A stretch of DNA of 64,000 bases from Squalus acanthias (lineage: Eukaryota), in the NCBI GenBank assembly GCA_030390025.1, contig CM059430.1, positions 152,334,001 to 152,398,000 on the forward strand, in the 5' to 3' direction. Of the stretch, positions 5,019 through 50,386 are shown one piece after another (positions within the stretch are counted from its first letter, which is position 1; each line of letters starts with the position of its first letter). A program made the position numbers and the translations under genes. The notes below the pieces were generated by a model. That model did not search any database and was not told the DNA's origin. It saw nothing but the letters and a program-made list of their open reading frames with translations.

Positions 5019-5471
5019 ATAGAAACATAGAAACATAGAAGATAGGAGCAGGAGTAGGCCATTCGGCCCCTCGAGCCTGCTCCGCCATTCAATGCGATCA
5101 TGGCTGATCATCCAAATTCAGTACCCTGTCCCTGCTTTCTCCCCATATCCCTTGATCCCTTTAGCCTTAAGAAATATATCGAACTCCTTCTTGAATATAT
5201 TTAATGAATTGGCCTCAACTGCCTTCTGTGGTAGAGAATTCCACAGGTTCACCACTCTCTGGGTGAAGAAATTCCTCCTCATCTCAGTCCTAAATGGCTT
5301 AACCCTTATCCTTAGACTGTGACCCCTGGTTCTGGACTCCCCACCATCGGAAACAGCCTTCCTGCATCTAGTCTGTCTAGTCCTGTTAGAATTTTATAAG
5401 TTTCAATGAGATCCCCTCTCATTCTTCTAAACTCTCGCGAATATAAGCCTAATCGACCCAATCTCTCTTCA
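5019..5471 (-). mobile_element. CR1 LINE 3' end (inverted partner of 5472-7955)
   Basis: (ATAGAAAC)n tail and 3' UTR; near-identical reverse complement of about 7510-7955. Confidence 0.92.
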
Positions 5472-7955
5472 CAAAAAAGGTGACTCAACCGTGGCTAACA
5501 AGGGAAATTAGGGATAGCATAAGATCCAAGGAGAGGACATATAAATTGGCCAGAAAAAGCAGTAAACCTGAGGATTGGGAGCAGTTTAGGATTCAACAAA
5601 GGAGGACAAAGGGATTAATTAAGAAGGGGAAAATAGAATATGAGAGGAAGCTTGCAGGGAACATAAAAACTGACTGTAAAAGTTTTTATAGATATGTGAA
5701 AAGAAAAAGATTGGTGAAGTCAAGCGTAGGTCCCTTGCAGTCAGAATCAGGGGAATTTATAATGGGGAACAAAGAAATGGCAGACCAATTAAATACATAT
5801 TTTGGTTCTGTCTTCACAAAGGAGGACACAAATAACCTCCCAGAGATGTCGGGGAACATAGGGTCTGATGAAAGGGAGGAACTGAAAGAAATCAGTATTT
5901 GTAGGGAAATGGTGTTAGGGAAGTTGGCGGGATTGAAGGCCGATAAATCCCCAGGGCCTGATAATCTGCATCCTAGGGTACTTAAGGAAGTGGCCCTAGA
6001 AATAGTAGATGCATTGCTGATCATCTTCCAACATTCGATGGAATCTGGAACAATACCCATGGATTGGAGGGTAGCTAATGTTACCCCACTATTCAAAAAG
6101 GGTGGTAGAGAGAAAACGGGGAATTACAGACCAGTAAGCCTGACATCGGTAGTGGGGAAAATGCTAGAGTCCATTATAAAAGATGTAATAGCAGAGCACT
6201 TGGAAAACAGTGACAGGATCGGACAAAGTCAACATGGATTTACAAAAGGTAAATCGTGCTTGACTAATCTACTGGAATTTTTTGAGGATGTAACTAGTAA
6301 AATAGATAAGGGAGAACCAGTGGATGTGGTGTATTTGGACTTTCAAAAGGCTTTCGATAAGGTCCCGCATAAGAGATTAGCATGTAAAGTTAAGGCACAT
6401 GGGATTGGGGGCAAGGTATTGACTTGGATAGAGAACTGGTTGGCAGACAGAAAGCAAAGAGTTGGAATAAACGGGTCTTTTTTCCGAGTGGCAGGCAGTG
6501 ACTAGTGGGGTACCGCAGGGATCGGTCCTTGGACCCCAGCTATTCACAATATATATTAATGATCTAGACAAGGGAACTAGATGTAATATCTCCAAGTTTG
6601 CAGACGACACAAAGCTGGGTGGGCGTATGTGCTGTGAGGAGGATGCCGAGAAACTCCAGGATGATTTGGACAGGTTGGGTGACTGGGCAGAAGCATGGCA
6701 GATGCAATATAACGTGGATAAATGCGAGGTTATCCACTTTGGTGTCAAAAACAGGAAGGCAGATTATTATCTGAATGGCAATAGATTGGGAGAAGGGGAA
6801 GGGCAACACGGTGGCATAGTGGTTAGCACTGGTGCCTCACAGCGCCAGAGACCCGGGTTCGAATCTGACCTCGGGTGACTGTCTGTGTGGAGTTTGCACA
6901 TTCTCCCCGTGTCTGCGTGGGTTTCCTCCGGGTGCTCCGGTTTCCTCCCACTGTCCAAAAATGTGCGGGTTAGGTTGATTTGGCTATGATAAATTGACCC
7001 TTAGTGTTAGGGGGGGATTAAATATGTGGGGTTATGGGGATAGGATGGGATATGTTAGGGGGAATTAAATACGTGGGGTTACGGGGGTCAGGTGGGATAT
7101 GTGTACTGTGGGGATTAAAGCAGGGACAGGGTACTGGATTTGAATGATCAGCCATGATCGTATTGAATGGTGGTGCAGGCTCGACGGGCCGAATGGCCTA
7201 CTCCTGCTCCTAGATTCTATGTTTCTATGTTTCTATGAGACCTGGGTGTACTTGTGCACCAGTCGCTGAAGGTAAGTATGCAGGTGCAGCAGGCGGTTAA
7301 GAAGGCAAATGGTATGTTGGCCTTCGTAGCGAGAGGGTTTGAGTACAGGAACAAGGATGTCTTGCTGCAGTTGTACAGGGCCTTGGTGAGACCACATCTT
7401 GAGTATTGTGTGCAGTTTTGGTCGCCTTATCTGAGGAAGGAGGTTCTTGCCATGGAAGGAGTTCAGCGAAGATTCACCAGGCGATACCTGGGATGGCAGG
7501 AATGACGTATGAGGAGAGATTGGGTCGATTGGGCTTATACTCGCTGGAGTTTAGAAGAATGAGAGGGGATCTCATTGAAACTTATAAAATTCTGAAAGGA
7601 CTGGACAGACTAGATGCAGGAAGGATGTTCCCGATGGTCGGGGAGTACAGAACCAGGGGTCACAGTCTAAGGATAAGGGGTAAGCCTTTAGGACAGAAAT
7701 GAGGAGGAATTTCTTCACCCAGAGAGTGGTGAACCTGTGGAATTCTCTACCACAGAAGGCAGTAGAGGCCAATTCATTAAATATATTCAAGAAGGAGTTC
7801 GATATATTTCTTAAGGCTAAAGGGATCAAGGGATATGGGGAGAAAGCAGGGACAGGGTTCTGAATTTGGATGATCAGCCCTGATCGCATTGAATGGCAGA
7901 GCAGGCTAGAGGGGCCGAATGGCCTACTCCTGCTCCTATCTTCTATGTTTCTATG
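5472..7955 (+). mobile_element. 5'-truncated CR1 LINE, ORF2 RT pseudogene with frameshifts and a SINE insertion
   Basis: KSPGPD, NYRPVSLTS, YLDFQKAFDKV, GVPQGSVLGP, FADD motifs; (TTCTATGT)n tail. Confidence 0.95.
6801..7237 (+). mobile_element. Full-length V-SINE (HE1-like) inserted in CR1
   Basis: A box TGGCATAGTGG, B box GGTTCGAATC, V-domain (gtgggtttcctccgggtgctccggtttcctccc), CR1-type tail; it interrupts the CR1 reading frame. Confidence 0.9.
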
Positions 7956-15771: not shown

Positions 15772-16707
15772 TGAAATCTATCGCAACGGGATGGGAATAA
15801 TTTATGTCCTCTCATCCTGGTCCTCTCAATCGGAGGAGCAGCAGCCGCATGGCTCAGCGCAGATCTTCCTGGGAAGAGGAGAAGGAGGAGGACGAGGGGC
15901 GCCTTGCATACCCTGTTGTGACCAATACAGCATCCCTCCAGTTCACTGCTGCCCGTCAAGCAGGGTATGCACACTGCTATGACACATTCGCATAAGTTTA
16001 CTCTTCAACCATAGGTGGCTACCATATGGCTCTGTAATTGTTGCCGACATTAGTCCAACGTCATACATCATCTCTGCTATATCTGGTTATTTCCTATCAC
16101 TATCACCATCAGCATTACAAAAGCAAGTCGCCCTGAGCCCTCAAAGCGCATTTGCCATTTCCCAGAACACATAGGCCACACAATCAACTGTTTGCCATAA
16201 TTTTTCTTTACCACATGACAAAAGGATCACAAACCAATAACAGTCAGAAAAAAAAGACAAAACACCCACGTGAGTCCCCTTGTGACTATATGTGCTTAAT
16301 CTTTCTTTTACGCGTGCTTCTATGTGGTGCTACCCCCTGTGGCTTCAGCAGATGTAGAGGCACCTTGCTGACTAGGATGCTGCTCCTGCTTAGATGCCTT
16401 TGGGGGGCGTCCTCTGGGTTTGGGAGCCTGAGAGGGCTCTTCAACAGTCTGCTCTTCCTGCGGCTGTGCAGGGGCTGAAACGGCCATCTCAGTTGGCTCT
16501 GCAAAGTGGGTCTCTGACCGAGGGCTCCGCAGTGGCATGGTCGTGTGAGCGCTTGGAGAGGAGCCCACACTTCCTTGTGTCCTGCCAACAACATCCCTCT
16601 CATGGGTCAGTGCTGGCAAGTGGCTGGAGAACACCTTGCTGCACATCAGGGGGACCATGAGGACCCGTATCTCCACTGGCAGTCCTCATCACAAGGACGT
16701 CCATGAA

Positions 16708-18278
16708 ACATAGAAACATAGAAAATAGGTACAGGAGTAGACCATTCGGTCCTTCGAGCCTGCACCGCCATTCAATGCGTTCATGGCTGAACATGCTACC
16801 TCAGTACCCCATTCCTGCTTTCTCGCCATACCCCTTGATCCCCTTAGTGTGAGTGTTATATCTAACTCCCTTTTGAATATATTTAGCGAACTGGCCTCAA
16901 CAACCTTCTGTGGAAGAGAATTCCATAGATTCACCACTCTCTGGGTGAAGAAGTTCCTCCTCAGCTCAGTCCTAAATGGCTTCCCCTTAATCCTTAGACT
17001 GTGACCCCTGGTTCTAGTTTTCCCTACCATTGGGAACATTCTGCCCGCATCTAATTTGTCTAAACCAGTCAGGATTTTAAATGTCTCTATAAGATCCCCC
17101 CTCATTCTTCTGAACTCCAGAGGATACAAGTTCAGTTGACCCAATCTTTCTTGATATGTCAGTCCGGCCATCCCAGGAATCAATCTAGTGAACCTTCGCT
17201 GCACTCCCTCAATAGCAAGAATGTCCTTCCTTAAGTTAGGAGACCAAAACTGCGCACAATACTCCAGGTGTGGCCTCACCAAGGCCCTGTACAACTGCAG
17301 CATCACCTCCCTACTCCTGTACTCAAATCCCCTTGCTATGAAGGCCATCATTCCGTTTGCTTTCTTGACTGCCTGCTGCACTTGCATTCCCACCTTCAGT
17401 GACTGATGTACCATGATGCCCAGGTCTCGTTGCACCTCCCCTTTCCCTAATCTGCCACCATTCAGGTAATATTCCGCCTCTCTATTTTTACCACCAAAGT
17501 GGATAACCTCACATTTATCCACATTATACTTCATCTGCCATACATTTGCCCATTCACCCAACCTGTCCAAGTCACTCTGTAGCCTCCTAGCATCCTCCTC
17601 ATTGTTCACACTGCCTCCCAATTTAGTGTCATCCACAAATTTGGAGATATTACATTTAATCCCTTCGTCCAAATCATTAATATATAATGTAAACAGCTGG
17701 GGTCCCAGCACCGAACCCTGCGGTACCCCGCTGGTCACTGCCTGCCATTCTGAAAAGTACCCATTTACTCCTACTCTTTGTTTCCTGTGTGCCAACCAGT
17801 TCTCAATCCACGTCAACACATTACCCCCAATCCCATGTGCTTTAACTTTGCTCACCAATCTCTTGTGTGGGACCTTGTCGAAGGCCTTCTGAAAGTCCAA
17901 ATACACCACATCTACTGGTTCCCCCCTGTCCACCCTATTGGAAACATCCTCAAAAAATTCCAGAAGATTTGTCAAGCATGATTTCCCTTTCACAAATCCA
18001 TGCTGACTTGGACCTATCATGTCGCCACTTTCCAAATGGTCTGTTATGACATCTTTAATAATTGCTTCCATCATTTTACCCACGACCGATGTCAGGCTGA
18101 CCGGTCTATAATTCCCTGCTTTCTCCCTCCCTCCTTTTTTAAAAAGAGGGGTTACATTGGCCACCCTCCACTCCTTCGGAACTGATCCAGTGTCTAAGGA
18201 ATGTTGGAAAATGATCGTCAATGCATCCACTATTTCCAAGGCCACCTCCTTAAGTACTCTGGGATGCAGACCATCAGA
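16708..18278 (-). mobile_element. 5'-truncated young CR1 LINE with a long open RT frame
   Basis: About 500 codons of uninterrupted RT; FVDD in place of FADD; (ATAGAAAC)n tail; TSD CCATGAA (16701-07 / 18279-85). Confidence 0.95.
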
Positions 18279-41222: not shown

Positions 41223-41989
41223 GGGCTGGATTTTGTCTTGGGGTCGGGTTGGGGTCGTGTGATCAGCATTTCGTGTTGCCCCCCCGACTCCAGATTAATG
41301 TGGATGAATGATGCAATTTTAACTTAATTGGGCAATTGAGTTCCAGCATGTGGGAACCCATGAACCAATTAGTGGTTTCAGTCTGAAAGTCGCCTCTGAT
41401 GATGTCATCATTGAAGAGACTGCCTGGCCTTTGCTGTGAGTGGACCTGGATGCANNNNNNNNNNNNNNNNNNNNNNNNNNNNNNNNNNNNNNNNNNNNNN
41501 NNNNNNNNNNNNNNNNNNNNNNNNNNNNNNNNNNNNNNNNNNNNNNNNNNNNNNNNNNNNNNNNNNNNNNNNNNNNNNNNNNNNNNNNNNNNAGCAAGGC
41601 CAGGCAGTCTCGCTGCGACTTTCAGACCTAATACTACTACTACCTTCATCACATCTCTGTTGTAATACTGGACCTGCAGCTGATAGTCAGCTATCCACTT
41701 GTGCTCCCGCCAGGTTTCACTGGAGTGTTTCACATCAGGCGTACTTCACGTCGGAAAAGGGTTAAACTAGCTAAATCGTTTCAAAATGGCATTACAGAGC
41801 CAATTTAGGGCTTGTTAAGGGCTTTAATGGCCTCTCCCGCCTCTTGGAGGCGGGACGGAGTCGGGAACCCCGCGACTGATTTTGTCAAAATTGCGTGGAG
41901 GCGGGATGGGGTCGGGACCCCCGAATCTGCAACTTTAACCCCCCACACGCCTCCAAACCCGACTCCACGGGTCATTGAAAATCCAGCCC
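41223..41989. mobile_element. Harbinger-type element spanning an assembly gap
   Basis: Perfect 12-bp TIR GGGCTGGATTTT; 3-bp TSD AGA. Confidence 0.85.
41455..41592. other. Assembly gap (N run)
   Basis: 138 N bases. Confidence 1.
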
Positions 41990-43424
41990 AGAGAGTTTCA
42001 GAGAACAAGAGAAAGAGAGTAATCAACACATATCTTATGTGCGTGTGAGATAGCCAACCTGTTTCAAATATCCATCCTGTGATCATTTGGGTGCGTTGGT
42101 GGACCTTGGGAGTTCCAACCTAAGTCACTCTTCAGCTCCCTCGGCTGATCAAGCACACAGCTCCAGGTTATCTCCATTGGTAAATGCCTTTCATAGAATG
42201 AAAATACATATTTCAGAAAAGACGTGAAGTGTTGTGACAGCTTTTAGACATTATAATTGAGTTGGAGATACACAGTTTAATGAAAGGTATTCTGTTAACA
42301 TTTACGTTTGTTCAACTGAGAGGTTTAGTTCAGGCTTTAAATGAACTGAAGTCCATTCATTTCGAATACACTTCTGTCCCTATTGCTAGTCCTAGAATAC
42401 AGTTCTGATGCATTGTATTATCAACAGTGATTGCCTATCCGAGCAAATCAATAGTTGGGTATCATTAGATAACCACATATTCACCATTAATGCTGCACAG
42501 ATATATGGAAGGTTCAGGAAATCTTACCTGGCATAGATTAGGGAAGACCTGGGATATATTCACCTTCACTGAGATCTACGGAAGAGAGACAACTCGAAGT
42601 GAGAGTAATAGAAAGTATTGAACTCTTGAAAGTATAGCTTTAGCATCTCTGAGTGGAAATGAAGAAGAAAATAAATGAAATTCAGTGAAGAATTAATCAG
42701 TGATAATTAATTCTAAAACTAATGTAACTATAGATCCACATTTCTGTTATTGTTATGCCCTAAATAACTGCATGCTGTAGAAATTATCCTTCCAATAAAG
42801 AGAGTAAATACAAAATGGCCACATAAATTCATATTTTGGTTAATAACCAGTCGGGCTACTGACATGCTGAATTTAGTAGCCCAGTGAGACATGCTGTAGG
42901 CTAAGGCACTGATACTTGAGTGGATTCAGTTCATCTATTTTTGCAGCTGCTATGATTCTAAAAGCCATGATGTGGAGATGCCGGTGTTGGACTGGGGTGG
43001 ACAAATGCGAGAAGTCGCACAACACCAGGTTATAGTCCAACAGCTTTATTTGAAATCACAAGCTTTCGGAGCGCTGCTCTTTTGTCAGGTGAAGTGAAGA
43101 GATGCATATGGGCACAGCATATATAGTCAGAGAACACTGCCAGATGATTACAGTTAATCTTTCTAACTGCCCTTTATCACACCTCGGCAGAGAGATAATC
43201 ACGGCAATCAAAGGTGTGGATGGTGTCCAAACAGGTCAGTCAGGAAAACATTACATCAAAGACAATGAGGTGGGGTCACAAGGGGTCAAATGTGGCAGAT
43301 GCTGGGGTCTGTATGGAAAACAAAAAACTTTTTTTGCTGGAAATCACAGCAGGTCCGGCCGCATCTGTGTAGAGAGAACAAGCCAACGACAACTCGAGTC
43401 TGGATGACTCTACGTCAGGTGGGG

Positions 43425-44136
43425 TTACATGTAGCGTGACATGAACCCAAGATCCCGGTTGAGGCCGTCCTCATGGGTGCAGAACTTGGCTATCAGTTTC
43501 TGCTCGACGATTTTGCGTTGTCGTGTGTCTCGAAGGCCGCCTTGGAGAACGCTTACCCGAAGATCGGAGGCTGAATGTCCTTGACTGCTGAAGTGTTCCC
43601 CGACTGGGAGGGAACACTCCTGCCTGGCGATTGTTGTACGGTGTCCGTTCATACGTTGTCGCAGTGTCTGCATCGTCTCGCCGATGTACCATGCTCCGGG
43701 GCATCCTTTCCTGCAACATATGAGGTAGACAATGTTGGCTGAGTCACATGAGTATGTACCATGTACCTGGTGGGTGGTGTCCTCACGTGTGATGATGGTA
43801 TCTGTGTTGATGATCTGGCATGTCTTTCAGAGGTTGCCGTGGCAGGGTTGTGTGGTGTCGTGGTCGCTGTTCTCCTGAAAGCTGGGTAATTTGCTGCGAA
43901 CGATGATCTGTTTGAGGTTAGGCGGCTGTTTGAAGGCGAGTAGTGGAGGCGTGGGGATGGCCTTAGCGAGGTGTTCGTCGTCATCGATGACATGTTGAAG
44001 GCTGCGAAGAACATGGCGTAGTTTCTCCGCTCCGTGGAAGTACTGGACGACGTAGGGTACTCTGTTGGTTGTTTCCCGTGTTTGTCTTCTGAGGAGGTCT
44101 ATGCGATTTTTCGCTGTGGCCCGTTGGAGCTGTCGA
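43425..44136 (-). pseudogene. Penelope GIY-YIG endonuclease region, left arm
   Basis: Mirror image of 44137-45131; QTLRQRMNGHR...GLNRDLGFMSRYM. Confidence 0.9.
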
Positions 44137-45131
44137 TCGACAGTTCCGACGGGCCACAGCGAAAAATCGCATAGACCTCCTCAGAAGACAAACACGGGAC
44201 ACAACCAACAGAGTACCCTACGTCGTCCAGTACTTCCACGGAGCGGAGAAACTATGCCATGTTCTTCGCAGCCTTCGACATATAGAAACATAGAAACATA
44301 GAAACATAGAATCTAGGAGCAGGAGTAGGCCATTCGGCCCGTCGAGCCTGCTCCGCCATTCAATACGATCATGGCTGATCATCCAAATCCAGTACCCTGT
44401 CCCTGCTTTAATCCCCACAGTACACATATCCCACCCTACCCCCGTAACCCCACGTATTTAATTCCCCCTAACATATCCCATCCTATCCCCATAACCCCAC
44501 ATATTTAATCCCCCCTAACACTAAGGGTCAATTTTATCATAGCCAAATCAACCTAACCCACACATTTTTGGATGATGATGACGAACACCTTGCTAAGGCC
44601 ATCCTCACGCCTCCACTACTCGCCTTCAAACAGCCGCCTAACCTCAAACAGACCATCGTTCACAGCAAATTACCCAGCTTTCAGGAGAACAGCGACCACG
44701 ACACCACACAACCCTGCCACGGCAACCTCTGCAAGACATGCCAGATCATCAACACAGATACCATCATCACACGTGAGGAGACCACCCACCAGGTATATGG
44801 TACATACTCATGTGACTCGGCCAACGTTGTCTACCTCATACGTTGCAGGAAAGGATGCCCCGGAGCATGGTACATCGGCGAGACCATGCAAACACTGCGA
44901 CAACGTATGAATGGACACCGCACAACAATCGCCAGGCAGGAGTGTTCCCTCCCAGTCGGGGAACACTTCAGCAGTCAAGGACATTCAGCCTCCGATCTTC
45001 GGGTAAGCGTTCTCCAAGTCGGCCTTCGAGACACACAACGCAAAATCGTCGAGCAGAAACTGATAGCCAAGTTCTGCACCCATGAGGACGGCCTCAACCG
45101 GGATCTTGGGTTCATGTCACGCTACATGTAA
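44137..45131 (+). pseudogene. Penelope linker plus GIY-YIG endonuclease, right arm
   Basis: PPNLKQ, PC...CKTC, NVVYLIRC, WYIGET, RMNGHR, VGEHF, GLN motifs. Confidence 0.92.
44282..44572 (-). mobile_element. 5'-truncated V-SINE
   Basis: Near-identical to 49961-50235; absent from the left PLE arm. Confidence 0.9.
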
Positions 45132-45245
45132 CCCCACCTGACGTCGAGTCATCCAGACTCGAGTCGTCGTTGGCTTGTTCTCTCTACACAGATGCGGCCG
45201 GACCTGCTGTGATTTCCAGCAAAAAAAGTTTTTTGTTTTCCATAC

Positions 45246-45439
45246 TGTGGTAACACAATACAGCTTCCTGTTACTCGAACTTTATTGCATCACTTCCTGT
45301 GATTAGTCCAGGATAAATACTGGACTGAGCAGTTGGATCCTGGAGAGGCATAGAGTAAGACCTCTTTTGTATGTAGCACCTTTTTAGTTGATTAAAGCTT
45401 ACTTTAAGTTCACCACGCGTAAGGCTCATTCTTATGACA
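45246..45439 (+). repeat. 5' LTR (194 bp)
   Basis: Starts exactly where PLE homology stops; TGTGGTAA...TTATGACA imperfect terminal inverted repeat; ATTAAA at 45391. The 3' boundary cannot be confirmed without a second LTR. Confidence 0.75.
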
Positions 45440-45517
45440 ATTTAATCAACTTTGAAAAACTTCGCACTCAAACTTTTTGGACGAACTCGGAATTAAGGAT
45501 CCAGGGAATCACCCATC

Positions 45518-48500
45518 AGGGAAAACATCCTTAAACCATCGCGTCTTGACTTGGACCCAAACACCCCAGCAGCCGGTAAGGTGTGGAAACACTGGTATCG
45601 CACGTTTGACAATTTTCTCGAATATTGCAAGGCTGATGATGACACAAAGTTGCGGATACTCATCAACTGTGTCACTCCGAATGTATTTCAGTATGTTGAG
45701 GAATGGGGCAGTTACGAGGAGGCAATTCGGACGCTTAAAAGACTATATACTAAGACACCGAATGAGGTCTATGCCAGACATCTACTAGCTACAGCTCAAC
45801 AAGGGCCGGAGGAATCCATTGATAAATTCCTCCAAGAGCTTCGCAGACTTAGTATGGACTGTAACTTTCAGGCGGCCTCAGCTGAGCTGTACCGTGAAGA
45901 AATGATCCGTGATGCTTTCATCTGCGGGCTTGCCTCCCCATTTATACGCCAGCGTCTACTGGAAAGTAAGACACTTGAGCTTCAGAGAGCTTAGGACATG
46001 GCTTGCTCTCTAGATCTGGCAAAAAGAAATGCAGACCTTTATACAGTGCCCAGACCTCGGTCTGCTGCCTTAACTACAGTCAGGCAATTTAAGAGGCCAC
46101 AGGTGAACTCTATTAGGGAGGACTTTATCCCTGACGATCAATCTGATGACTTCACTGATGAAGAGGATGATGACCCCACTGTGGCAGCCTCTTGGCAATC
46201 TAAGAAATGCTTCTTTTGTGGTGATGAGTTTCACCCTCGGAAATTCTGCCCTGCTCGCAATGCGTTTTGCAGTCATTGCAACAAAAAGGGTCATTTTGCA
46301 AAGGTTTGCCTATCAAGAGCCTCTACGAGGGCTTATCAAGCTAAGTCCTACCGAACTGCCCCGGTAAGGGCCTATCAAGATGTTCCGGCTAAAATCTATC
46401 GTGCTTCCTCTCGGGTTTTCTCTCGAAGAAACACACCTAGAGTTTCAGCCACTCTTTGTGCAACGACACCAATTACAGCTGCTTGTCCTCAGAACCTATT
46501 CCATGCAGCTACAAAAGCATCAATTAATGGACATACTTTAGATACCTTAATTGACTCAGGTAGCACTGATAGTTTCATTAGGGAACAGATTGTTGCAGAG
46601 TTAAAGCTACATGTTTTCCCATCAGACCAGGCAATTGCGATGGCTCAGTCATCACTTAATACCAGAATTTCTGGCTTTTGTATGGTTGAAATAACACTTA
46701 ATGGTCGCAGGTATCCCTCCACCCGGCTTTCGGTGCTCAAGGACTTATGTAGTGATCTTATCTTAGGGCTGGATTTTCAAAAGCAGCATAAGAAGCTCAC
46801 CATTGAGTTCGGCGGATCCAAACCTGAACTCACTATTTCTAATATACGACCTCGATTACCGTTCTGTGCCTTGTCAGCAGCTTCACTGGATGAACCCTCA
46901 CTGTTTACCAGTATCCCTCCTCGATGCAAACCGATTATAACAAAGTCACGACGTTTCAGTCAGGAAGACCAGTCTTTTATTGCGGCTGAGATTTCTCGGC
47001 TTTTAGCAGAGGATATCATCGAGCCTTGTTCGTCGCCATGGCGCGCCCAGGTCGTTATTGTTAAGAACCCTCTACAACCTCACAAGAAACGGCTGTGCAT
47101 TGACTATTCACAGACCATCAATCAATATACGGACTTGGACGCATACCCATTGCCGCGCATCGATGATATGGTTAATAAACTGGCTGAGTACACGGTGTTC
47201 TCAACATATGATCTGAAAAGTGCCTATCATCAGGTACCCTTGAAGGTCTCAGACAAGCAGTATACGGCCTTTGAAGCCAATGGACGGCTGTATCAATTTC
47301 GTCGCCTCCCCTTTGGGGTCACTAATGGAGTGGCTGTCTTCCAGTGAGCAATGGATGACCTGGTCAAACAGGAAGACTTGAAGGATACGTTTCCTTATCT
47401 GGACAATATTACTGTCGCAGGTCGCAATCAGCGGGAACATGACGCCAATCTCCAACGATTTTGGGATGCACTCCAGCACCGTAATTTGACATTAAATGCG
47501 GCTAAATCCATTGAGTCATCAACATCCTTGGCTATTGTGTGGGCAATGGCATCATTAAACCTGACCCTGAAAGGCTTCGCCCACTCCAAGAGCTCCCGCC
47601 ACCTAAGAATCCGGCCTCCTTGCGCCGGGCCCTCGGCCTGTTTGCATACTATGCTAAATGGATTCCTAACTTCTCGGACCGAATCCAACCTCTACTGAAG
47701 GCCAGCACATTCCCACTAGACACAGCGGCTGTTGCAGCCTTTAACCTCCTGAAAAAACAGTTGGAGAAAGCGGCTCTTCACTCCATCGATGAGAGTCTTC
47801 CTTTTGTTGTTGAGTGTGATGCCTCGGAGGTGGCGATCTCGGCCACTCTGAATCAGGAAGGTCGTCCGGTGGCATTTTTGTCCAGGACTTTTCAAGGGGC
47901 TGAGCTACATTATCCTCCAGTCGAGAAAGAAGCTACAGCCATCATAGAGGCAGTACGGAAGTGGACTCATCTCCTAGCTCGCCAGCACTTTACCTTAATC
48001 ACGGACCAGCGATCGGTCGCCTTCATGCTCGATAATCGAAACGGACCAAAATTAAAAATAATAAAATCCAGCTTTGGCGGCTGGAATTGGCTTCTTTTGG
48101 TTACACCATCCACTATCGACCTGGCAAGGAGAATGTGGCTCCGGATACCCTCACACGAGCATTCTGCTCCGCCATGGCACCCTCTACGCTCGTAGACATC
48201 CATGATGGGTTGTGTCATCCGGGCGTTACTCGCATGCTACACTTCGTGCGGTCCCGAAATCTCCCATTCTCTACCGGGGATGTAAAGAAGATGTGCTCGG
48301 ACTGCAGAGTCTGTGCGGAATTGAAACCTCAGTTTTTCCGCCCCTCGGGTGGTATACTCATACATGCGACCCAGCCAATGCAACGGCTTAGCATCGATTT
48401 TAAGGGGCCGTTGCCCTCTTCAACTCGCAACACTTATCTATTGACCATGGTCGATGAGTATTCCCGTTTTCCGTTTGCCTTTCCCTGCCCCAATATGCTG

Positions 48501-49379
48501 ACGACCACGGTTATCAGCTGCCTTGAGCAGGTATTTGCTTTCTGTGGCATGGCATCCTATGTTCATTCGGATCGGGGCCCTTCTTTTATGTCAGGAGAAC
48601 TCAAGGCCTATCTCTCGGAACGGGGTATTGCTGCCAGCAGAACGACGCCTTATCATCCGGTCGGGAATGGGCAAATCGAGCGTTTTAACGCTATCATCTG
48701 GAATGCGGTACGTCTGGCTTTGAGATCTCGGGGCCTACCCAACCAGCAATGGGAAGCAGTACTTCCAGACGCATTACACTCCACACGGTCCCTCCTTTCG
48801 ACCGCCACAAATACGACGCCTCATGAACGGTTCTTCCGATTTCAGCGTCGCTCATCCTATGGGATATCTCTCCCGTCGTGGCTGACTGCACCGGGACCAG
48901 TGCTACTCCGAAGATATGTCCGGGCGTCTAAGAATGACCCCCTGGTAGATGAGGTTGAGCTCACTGACGTCAACCCTACCTACGCCTATATTCGGTATCC
49001 TGACGGTCGGGAATCTACCGTGTCATTGCGGGATCTGGCTCCCTGCCCGCCGAAACATAGAGGGACACCAGGGGATGATATTGTACCAGGCACATCTCTG
49101 GGCTCGCCAGGTGCCTCTCATCACGATCTGGATCTGACGCCGGCTGGTACCTCACTCCAGCGTGCCGACCTGGGGCAGACTGACTATGAGCCCGTCGGGG
49201 CTCGCACGCGCAGCCACGATCCACCCCGTACCATACGCTCGGAAACGGATCTGCCACAGCCCTGCCCGACACCCGTTCGGGCACCAGTACACAGTCAGGA
49301 TCGTCCTGACCCCTCACAGAGCGGGCTGGATCACTCGGACTCTGGTCCACGGCCCGCGGCGGGTAAACGGGCTAGGGGC
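45518..49379 (+). pseudogene. gag-pol single-ORF pseudogene
   Basis: Two CCHC knuckles, protease LIDSG, RT SPW/RLCIDY/YDLKSAYHQ/PFG/YLDN, RNase H CDAS/EKEA/TDQ, integrase HPG...C..C, IDF, DRG, NGQIER. Stops at 45992 and 47345, frameshifts near 47515 and 48040; likely ATG mutated to AGG at 45518. Confidence 0.92.
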
Positions 49380-49518
49380 TTTGGACACCATCCACACCTT
49401 TGATTGCCGTGATTATCTCTCTGCCGAGGTGTGATAAAGGGCAGTTGGAAAGATTAACTGTAATCATCTGGCAGTGTTCTCTGACTATATATGCTGTGCC
49501 TATATGCATCTCTTCACT

Positions 49519-49555
49519 TCACCTGACGAAGGAGCAGCGCTCTGAAAGCTTGTGA
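49519..49555 (+). ncRNA. Minimal type I hammerhead ribozyme
   Basis: TCAC-CTGACGA-A-GGAGC-AGC-GCTCT-GAAA-GCTT-GTGA; the mirror copy at 43056-43092 has a core mutation (CTGACAA). Confidence 0.78.
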
Positions 49556-49960
49556 TTTCAAATAAAGCTGTTGGACTATAACCTGGTGTTGTGCGACTTC
49601 TCACATGATTCTAAAAGATGCTCCTAAAATGACAGATTTTCCCACCAGGAGAGAAGTCAACAGCCGAGTTATGTCGCATTGCATTCCTATATCTCCTAAT
49701 GGCTGTAACAGAGCTAAAGTTACTACCTGTTTAGTCTTGGACCAGCCAGTCAGATTTTCAAGCAGGCTGTTTGAAAATGTCTTAAGATATCAACCAGGCA
49801 TTGAGAAGTCTGTTTTTTCTTAATACCATTTTTTATATAATTCTCCATCTCGCAATGTGGAGGATTTAATTATTGGGGACTTTATGGTTTTTGATGAACT
49901 TTCATCAGCAGCCAAAAATCTTGAATTCCAGCCATGATTTCACCACTGCCCTGCATGATA

Positions 49961-50386
49961 TGGAAACGTAGAATCTAGGAGCAGGAGTAGGCCATTCGGC
50001 CCGTCGAGCCTGCTCCACCATTCAATACGATCATGGCTGATCATTCAAATCCAGTACTCTGTCCCTGCTTTAATCCCCACAGTACACATATCCCACCCTA
50101 CCCCCGTAACCCCACGTATTTAATTCCCCCTAACATATCCCATCCTATCCCCATAACCCCACATATTTAATCCCCCCCTAACACTAAGGGTCAATTTATC
50201 ATAGCCAAATCAACCTAACCCGCACATTTTTGGACTGTGGGAGGAAACCGGAGCACCCGGAGGAAACCCACGCAGACAGGGGGAGAATGTGCAAACTCCA
50301 CACAGACAGTCACCCGAGGCCGATTCGGACCCGGGTCCCTGGCGCTGTGAGGCACCAGTGCTAACCACTATGCCACCGTGTTGCCC
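49961..50386 (-). mobile_element. Full-length V-SINE (HE1-like)
   Basis: Reverse complement of the 6801-7237 type, from the GGGCAACACGG head to the CR1 tail. Confidence 0.92.

Follow-up and report, generated by a model that had tools for sequence, protein, structure and literature searches.

Probable self-priming of reverse transcription in a chromodomain-free Ty3/Gypsy lineage of animals

Sequence analysis suggests that in one animal Ty3/Gypsy lineage, which has no chromodomain, the elements use their own RNA to prime minus-strand synthesis, much as Tf1 does, and we give this reading a probability of about 0.7. If a primer drawn from another copy of the same sequence is counted as well, self-priming becomes very probable. 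Self-priming in Gypsy elements is commonly taken as a hallmark of the Tf1/sushi chromoviruses. The lineage is represented by a damaged element in a 64,000-nt stretch of Squalus acanthias DNA (hereafter the window), in which a segment of the 5' long terminal repeat (LTR) is complementary to the bases at the primer-binding site (PBS) position.

The LTR arm of this duplex, the putative self-primer, lies at 45386–45396 on the plus strand (AGTTGATTAAA), and its last six bases (45391–45396, ATTAAA) form a poly(A) hexamer. The PBS-position arm, at 45441–45451 on the same strand (TTTAATCAACT), contains no TGG and is separated from the LTR end by a single base at 45440, which is A in seven of the eight duplex-bearing elements described here and T in L002. 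The two arms are exact reverse complements and each is unique in the window. The original prediction described a run of exactly 11 bp without a tRNA-type PBS, and both observations stand: the adjoining pairs, T/T on the outside and G/A on the inside, are unpaired, and no TGG occurs within 20 nt after 45439 or at the LTR end of any of the eight duplex-bearing elements, the nearest being at +14 in L003.

In the 200 nt before gag this duplex exceeds every other inverted repeat in length, and none of 200 dinucleotide shuffles matches it. The complement of any 11-mer starting at 45440–45444 was present in 80 of 200,000 shuffles of the 194-nt LTR, and the same test was passed at 362 of 63,780 window positions, an upper bound because the N gap (near 41455–41592) is counted. 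Perfect inverted repeats of at least 11 bp with a loop of 10–150 nt number 13 in the window outside the gap, so it is the position that is unusual and not the inverted repeat itself. Folding of the whole 45386–45500 region is no better than that of shuffles (z −0.17). A small hairpin is predicted directly 3' of the LTR arm (45397–45409, plus strand), with a similar one just after the arm in L001, L002 and L003 and none in L005 and L006 (four of six families including the window); another, predicted near the LTR end within the 44-nt loop (45418–45436, plus strand), is not conserved between families. TTTTT at 45381–45385 could also pair with AAAAA at 45455–45459 past a 3-nt bulge, lengthening the window duplex, and this may be chance.

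The 5' LTR itself spans 45246–45439 on the plus strand (194 nt, TGTGGTAACA...TCTTATGACA). Its left junction at 45246 (CCATAC/TGTGG) is set by alignment to an uninterrupted copy of the host repeat at 43985–43005 on the minus strand. The right end cannot be fixed from the window copy alone because its 3' LTR is absent, and the 64-kb window holds no second LTR or further Gypsy copy. We place it at 45439, as the original prediction did, from the terminal inverted match of the LTR ends (7/10), the LTR length (194 nt, one less than the 195 nt of three two-LTR relatives) and the junction of CA, one base and TTT in relatives. An end at 45330, the single CA-xx-TGG inside the LTR (CA-GT-TGG), is at odds with the LTR length, the terminal match and the relatives, and was rejected. 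That intact two-LTR copies would settle the LTR end proved correct for the relatives L004, L005, L006 and L008 and not for the window element, which has a 5' LTR only.

The element is inserted in a host repeat at 44574–45245 (plus strand, by alignment to the uninterrupted copy) that resumes at 49380–49606 on the same strand, with the right junction near 49380. The window copy has no polypurine tract (PPT), 3' LTR or target duplication, and about 70–80 nt of the host repeat are also lost. We take the segment at 44574–45245 to resemble the GIY-YIG 3' end of a Penelope-like element; Pfam gave no match there. The two presumed Penelope-like 3' ends, at 43005–43985 (minus) and 44574–45245 (plus), are 97% identical and inverted, about 600 nt apart.

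To relate the window arms to those of other elements we used 11 loci (L001–L011) from one contig scan, whose titles call them bacterial MAG contigs, evidently through carry-over of eukaryotic DNA; some of these Gypsy elements have satellite-rich flanks. Eight of the loci have an LTR–gag junction and entered the duplex count, while L009, L010 and L011, which have none, were left out. Five relatives carry two LTRs, and L001–L003 are circular contigs with one collapsed LTR, whose ends were inferred from the PPT and CA. In all eight relatives the PPT ends in GAA immediately before the 3' LTR, ahead of TG or TA (positions 237 in L001, 3216 in L002, 3670 in L003, 6682 in L004, 6689 in L005, 5491 in L006, 5567 in L007 and 6769 in L008), and the target duplication is 5 bp, exact in four of the five two-LTR copies and agreeing at 3/5 bases in L004.

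In seven of the eight relatives the longest inverted repeat of the 200 nt upstream of gag is a duplex of 10–15 bp, a length reached by 0 or 1 of 200 shuffles, and in the same seven the PBS arm begins one base past the final CA of the LTR. The two-LTR relatives L004, L005, L006 and L008 fix the LTR end, with the PBS at +2; as a control, the bases following their 3' LTRs match the LTR over 3–6 nt only. The arm is 11 nt long in the window, 14 nt in L001 (TATTGTTGATTAAA), 13 nt in L002 (TAATGTAATAAAA), 15 nt in L003 (CAACGTCTAGTAAAA), 14 nt in L005 and L008 (CTTAGTTGAATAAA; 10 nt in L004) and 14 nt in L006 (TTAAGTTGAATAAA). L004, L005 and L008 are one family, and the six independent families in all are a small sample. 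The significance first attached to a pairing of exactly 11 nt finds no support, as six of the seven duplex-bearing relatives pair 13–15 nt.

The original prediction had also proposed a search for compensatory changes between the two 11-mers in related families, and these were found. MAFFT misaligned the arms of L002 and L003, and pairs were therefore counted by anchored coordinates. Across the inner 11 pairs of eight elements, the window and seven of the eight relatives, Watson-Crick pairs fill 87 of 88 cells, with no G-U pair; the single exception, in L004, pairs with L004's 3' LTR. The four families that share a register show two-sided changes at five positions (pairs 5, 11, 12, 13 and 14), and L002 and L003 differ more. 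Each arm fits its own PBS best, with runs of 11–15 against 3–11 in cross pairs, and a true mismatch terminates every arm–PBS run. RT identity between the families that carry the duplex is 43–64%. On these comparisons, arm–PBS complementarity is a real, lineage-wide feature.

That the LTR arm overlaps the poly(A) signal, as already pointed out for the window, is likewise general: the arm ends in a poly(A)-type hexamer (ATTAAA, AATAAA or AGTAAA) in all six families, 23–50 nt before the LTR end, and the loop measures 24–51 nt. L004, L005 and L008 have a second AATAAA (2931–2951) 12–13 nt past the arm's hexamer, outside the cover of the duplex. Folding z-scores run from −2.8 to −7.1 in the six families, values that lean upward since the stretches were picked around the duplex, and the predicted mean pair probability of the intramolecular duplex is 0.59–0.99. 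The remaining relative, L007, has no duplex at the poly(A) signal (z −0.03); instead, a sequence overlapping the end of the LTR pairs near its start, in the longest repeat of this element (12 bp). Its LTRs are 74% identical, and the exception is likely due to decay of an old copy.

In the mechanism we propose, transcription would begin within the LTR, at the arm or slightly upstream of it, which in the window copy means about 45381–45386. The first 11–15 nt of the RNA would fold over the 24–51-nt loop onto the PBS, a step for which the complementarity is observed and the folding predicted. Cleavage would follow immediately 3' of the hexamer's AAA, with the element's RNase H as the probable nuclease on the model of Tf1; the 3'-OH so released would, by the same analogy, prime reverse transcription. 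After the cut, strand transfer would have only about 15–25 nt of repeat to work with, as estimated from the usual distance between hexamer and cleavage. Plus-strand synthesis would copy the primer back into the PBS in each cycle, so that an alteration of the LTR arm returns as its exact complement in the next generation. Such copying would explain the pure Watson-Crick covariation and the sharp ends of the runs, which it fits better than does selection on a hairpin, and would make primer length equal PBS length, 13–15 nt in most families. In the accessible text on Tf1, the PBS is paired with the 11 bases at the start of the RNA and RNase H cleaves between the 11th and 12th (PMC7175516), and primers become copied into the cDNA ends (PMC11042837).

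A start site at 45386 itself, as initially predicted, finds no support in the relatives. The pairing in L005/L008 and L006 reaches 3 nt upstream of the initiator-like A in TTAGTT/TAAGTT, which probably places the RNA 5' end at the beginning of the longer run or upstream of it. As a likely second function, the duplex would hide the 5' poly(A) signal and leave the 3' one free; only the 5' signal would be hidden because the PBS follows the 5' LTR alone. Weighing against self-priming are that the start site and cleavage are deduced from sequence, that L007 is without the duplex, that no conserved pretzel (the multi-duplex fold of Tf1, below) is predicted, that the families number six, that the LTR ends of L001–L003 had to be deduced and that the repeat left for strand transfer would be short.

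Among other explanations, the one that survives best is self-priming by another copy, in which the primer would be supplied by the copy in the 3' LTR, close to the poly(A) tail, or by a second packaged genome, and the start site could lie downstream of the arm. The arm is present in both LTRs, which makes the source of the primer undecidable from sequence, and its ending in the hexamer in six of six families, with 23–50 nt of LTR after it, also suits such a source. Ordinary poly(A) cleavage, however, takes place downstream of the hexamer, so that a special cut would still be needed, and the intramolecular duplex is predicted to be dominant over its 24–51-nt loop, and we consider a primer from another copy unlikely.

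Quite unlikely is a duplex that acts as a regulatory hairpin only, hiding the poly(A) signal of the 5' LTR while another, unseen primer is used. HIV-1 has such a poly(A) hairpin, which hides the signal of its 5' LTR, and a regulatory role would account for an LTR arm that always ends on the hexamer and a 3' arm found after the 5' LTR only. Yet the 3' arm lies exactly one base past the LTR end in all eight duplex-bearing elements, which is the site required of a PBS, and no alternative PBS is present at the LTR end. Selection on RNA structure should moreover leave some G-U pairs, and there are none in the 88 cells.

The PBS might instead bind a host tRNA half or other small RNA, with the LTR match secondary, since half-tRNA priming exists in Copia elements (PMC6317226, accessible text); this we judge very unlikely, as a conserved host RNA would fix the PBS, whereas the PBS varies by family with each tracking its own LTR, and Rfam gave no match at 45150–45650. 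Chance pairing in an A+T-rich LTR, to which the 13 like-sized repeats of the window and the z of −0.17 lend some colour, is scarcely credible and is refuted by the same arrangement, in different sequences, at the same place in seven of eight relatives.

The lineage that would prime itself in this way consists of compact Gypsy elements of about 4.1–4.2 kb with one open reading frame (ORF) of ~1200 aa and LTRs of 110–200 nt. In the window, gag-pol occupies 45521–49085 (plus strand); it is a single ORF in intact relatives and is broken here, with no ATG at the relatives' start site, stops at 45992–45994 and 47345–47347, and frame changes near 47518–47539 and 48039–48057. Two CX2CX4HX4C zinc knuckles (46208–46309, by motif) are followed on the plus strand by an aspartic protease (DSGS, 46514–46795, Pfam), the RT core (47084–47509, with the catalytic motif YLDN at 47396–47407), RNase H (47731–48042, Pfam) and the integrase zinc finger and core (48186–48659, Pfam), with no chromodomain after. 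The order of gag, then protease, RT, RNase H and integrase is that of Ty3/Gypsy in Pfam annotation of the window ORFs and of 13 intact relatives. The best solved-structure match of the window RT is the Ty3 RT (E 6e-27), and an ESM Atlas search with the window Gag region returned generic Gag clusters only.

A search with the RT among long proteins gave relatives of which the best 120 of 534 matches, 56–77% identical, were analysed. Among these 120, 74 have a single polyprotein of 1160–1260 aa, 83 have two CCHC fingers, and the RT motif is xxDN in 87 and xxDD in 20. The double CCHC and the missing chromodomain, both part of the original prediction, are thus traits shared with relatives: PF00385 was found in none of the best 120 of 534 (precomputed Pfam), in none of 13 proteins rescanned and nowhere in a Pfam scan of the window. 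The tail beyond the integrase C-terminal motif measures 63–108 aa in the 50 full-length proteins in which that motif was found. Loss of the last Asp of YxDD usually cripples RT. YxDN is nevertheless a lineage trait in intact ORFs and not decay; it is typical of the lineage, and deeper-branching members such as L003 keep YLDD.

Hosts among the matches listed are Xenia, Acropora, Macrobrachium, Palaemon, Caligus, Armadillidium, Ischnura, Mytilus, Trichuris, Trichobilharzia and Scyliorhinus, to which a length-shifted RT search (20 proteins) adds Narcine, Myxine and Periplaneta. A FastTree RT tree of 247 sequences puts 205 in one group (branch 0.57, SH-like 0.999, the only kind of support computed), apart from 42 other Gypsy RTs; as no named reference from Tf1/sushi, Mag or MolGy was among the sequences, the tree marks a distinct lineage and gives neither its sister group nor its name. 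No canonical chromovirus RT appeared among the 20 proteins of the length-shifted search or in a representative search, and a chromodomain query returned itself only. One Gypsy-type polyprotein outside the lineage in the tree, P0133, has a chromodomain between RNase H and integrase and not at the C terminus. In another FastTree RT tree the window RT groups with L007, the relative nearest to it there, and with Xenia P0006 and P0004, and stands apart from the named shark and ray proteins (P0080, P0103, P0121), a placement that may reflect either ancient paralogy or transfer between aquatic hosts. The partner of L002 in the tree, P0066, is named as a bacterial DDE integrase, and a cluster look-up of 10 proteins returned no names.

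Self-priming is placed by the literature, in the text accessible to us, in Tf1/sushi, Tcn1 and Copia TAR elements. The Tf1/sushi group (Tf1, Tf2, Tj1, Tosmo and sushi-ichi; the plant Tcn1 clade) shares with the present lineage the Ty3/Gypsy order, the lack of a tRNA PBS and a PBS that directly follows the 5' LTR and is complementary to an LTR stretch (PMC10085805, PMC4600332, PMC6317226). Unlike that group, the present elements have no chromodomain, two CCHC fingers, a mostly YxDN RT, a single ORF of ~1200 aa and LTRs of 110–200 nt, and their primer arm of 11–15 nt ends in a poly(A) hexamer and is joined to the PBS by a short loop. Tf1 forms a three-duplex 'pretzel' (PMC10085805), whereas the folds predicted here show the central duplex and no conserved flanking duplexes. 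The hosts, too, include cnidarians, molluscs and other protostomes, where the accessible text of PMC2774666 reports chromoviruses to be absent. Because no chromodomain was found and no conserved pretzel is predicted, the lineage should not be filed as Tf1/sushi, its RT having been compared with 42 other Gypsy RTs, none of them a named Tf1/sushi element.

Outside Tf1/sushi, self-priming has been predicted from LTR complementarity for the Copia TAR lineage (Houba, Osr-1; PMC6317226, accessible text), and it therefore arose more than once. Those are plant elements of the Copia superfamily, in contrast to the protease–RT–RNase H–integrase order and animal hosts seen here. Closer in kind are the Mag lineage (A, B and C clades) and MolGy/PolGy of molluscs and annelids, which are env-less metazoan Gypsy elements as here. 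The two CCHC fingers, single ORF and 5-bp duplications presumably recall Mag. Compared by description and not with MolGy sequences, the lineage may be one of the numbered MolGy clades, since it occurs in Mytilus. The accessible text of three Mag/MolGy surveys (PMC6238403, PMC8556966, PMC9679248) contains no occurrence of a PBS.

The Saci2/lennie clade of flatworms resembles the lineage in its single Gag-Pol ORF and TGT...ACA LTRs, and the accessible text makes no mention of a chromodomain there (PMC12471100). Saci2 has 4-bp target duplications, a length of 4.7–5.2 kb, LTRs of 251–521 bp and tRNA primers (PMC12471100), and assignment to this clade was rejected on the 5-bp duplications, 4.1–4.2-kb length and lack of a tRNA PBS of the present elements. 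Skipper of Dictyostelium and the fungal GalEa Copia elements likewise lack a TGG PBS. Unlike the elements described here, Skipper has a polypyrimidine tract and no LTR complement (PMC5006619), and the GalEa hairpin is reported to lie wholly within the internal domain (PMC6934838), both as far as the available text goes.

Nowhere in the searchable literature, which covers few subscription journals, did we find self-priming described for an animal Gypsy lineage devoid of a chromodomain; Repbase Reports may note the PBS. No such lineage is described in the accessible text of PMC6317226, PMC3601003, PMC6934838, PMC6238403, PMC5006619, PMC2774666, PMC4600332, PMC13524379, PMC10085805, PMC5718144, PMC11042837, PMC9679248, PMC8556966, PMC7175516 or PMC12471100. 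Tentatively, and at somewhat short of even odds, we suggest that an undescribed and widespread lineage with a mostly YxDN RT evolved tRNA-free priming independently of Tf1/sushi, with one 11–15-nt stretch serving as transcript start, self-primer and poly(A) signal and a duplex that keeps the 5' poly(A) signal silent.

If a second, broad lineage in animals does self-prime with an RNA structure that much smaller, it would bear on a question raised in the accessible text of PMC3601003, whether hairpin priming came before tRNA priming or was repeatedly re-invented. It would offer a minimal substrate of 50–80 nt with which to examine how retroelements cleave their own primers, and it suggests a single structure that solves both priming and premature polyadenylation. 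Regulation by tRNA fragments would presumably not reach such elements, and annotation tools that insist on a tRNA PBS would presumably overlook them.

Elsewhere in the window, dispersed repeats lie at 5022–5474, 16705–17160, 44293–44572 and 49955–50234, which we take to be LINE/SINE tails, cartilaginous-fish-like in look. ARAGORN places a tRNA-Thr(AGT) at 1770–1838 on the minus strand, possibly the head of a SINE.
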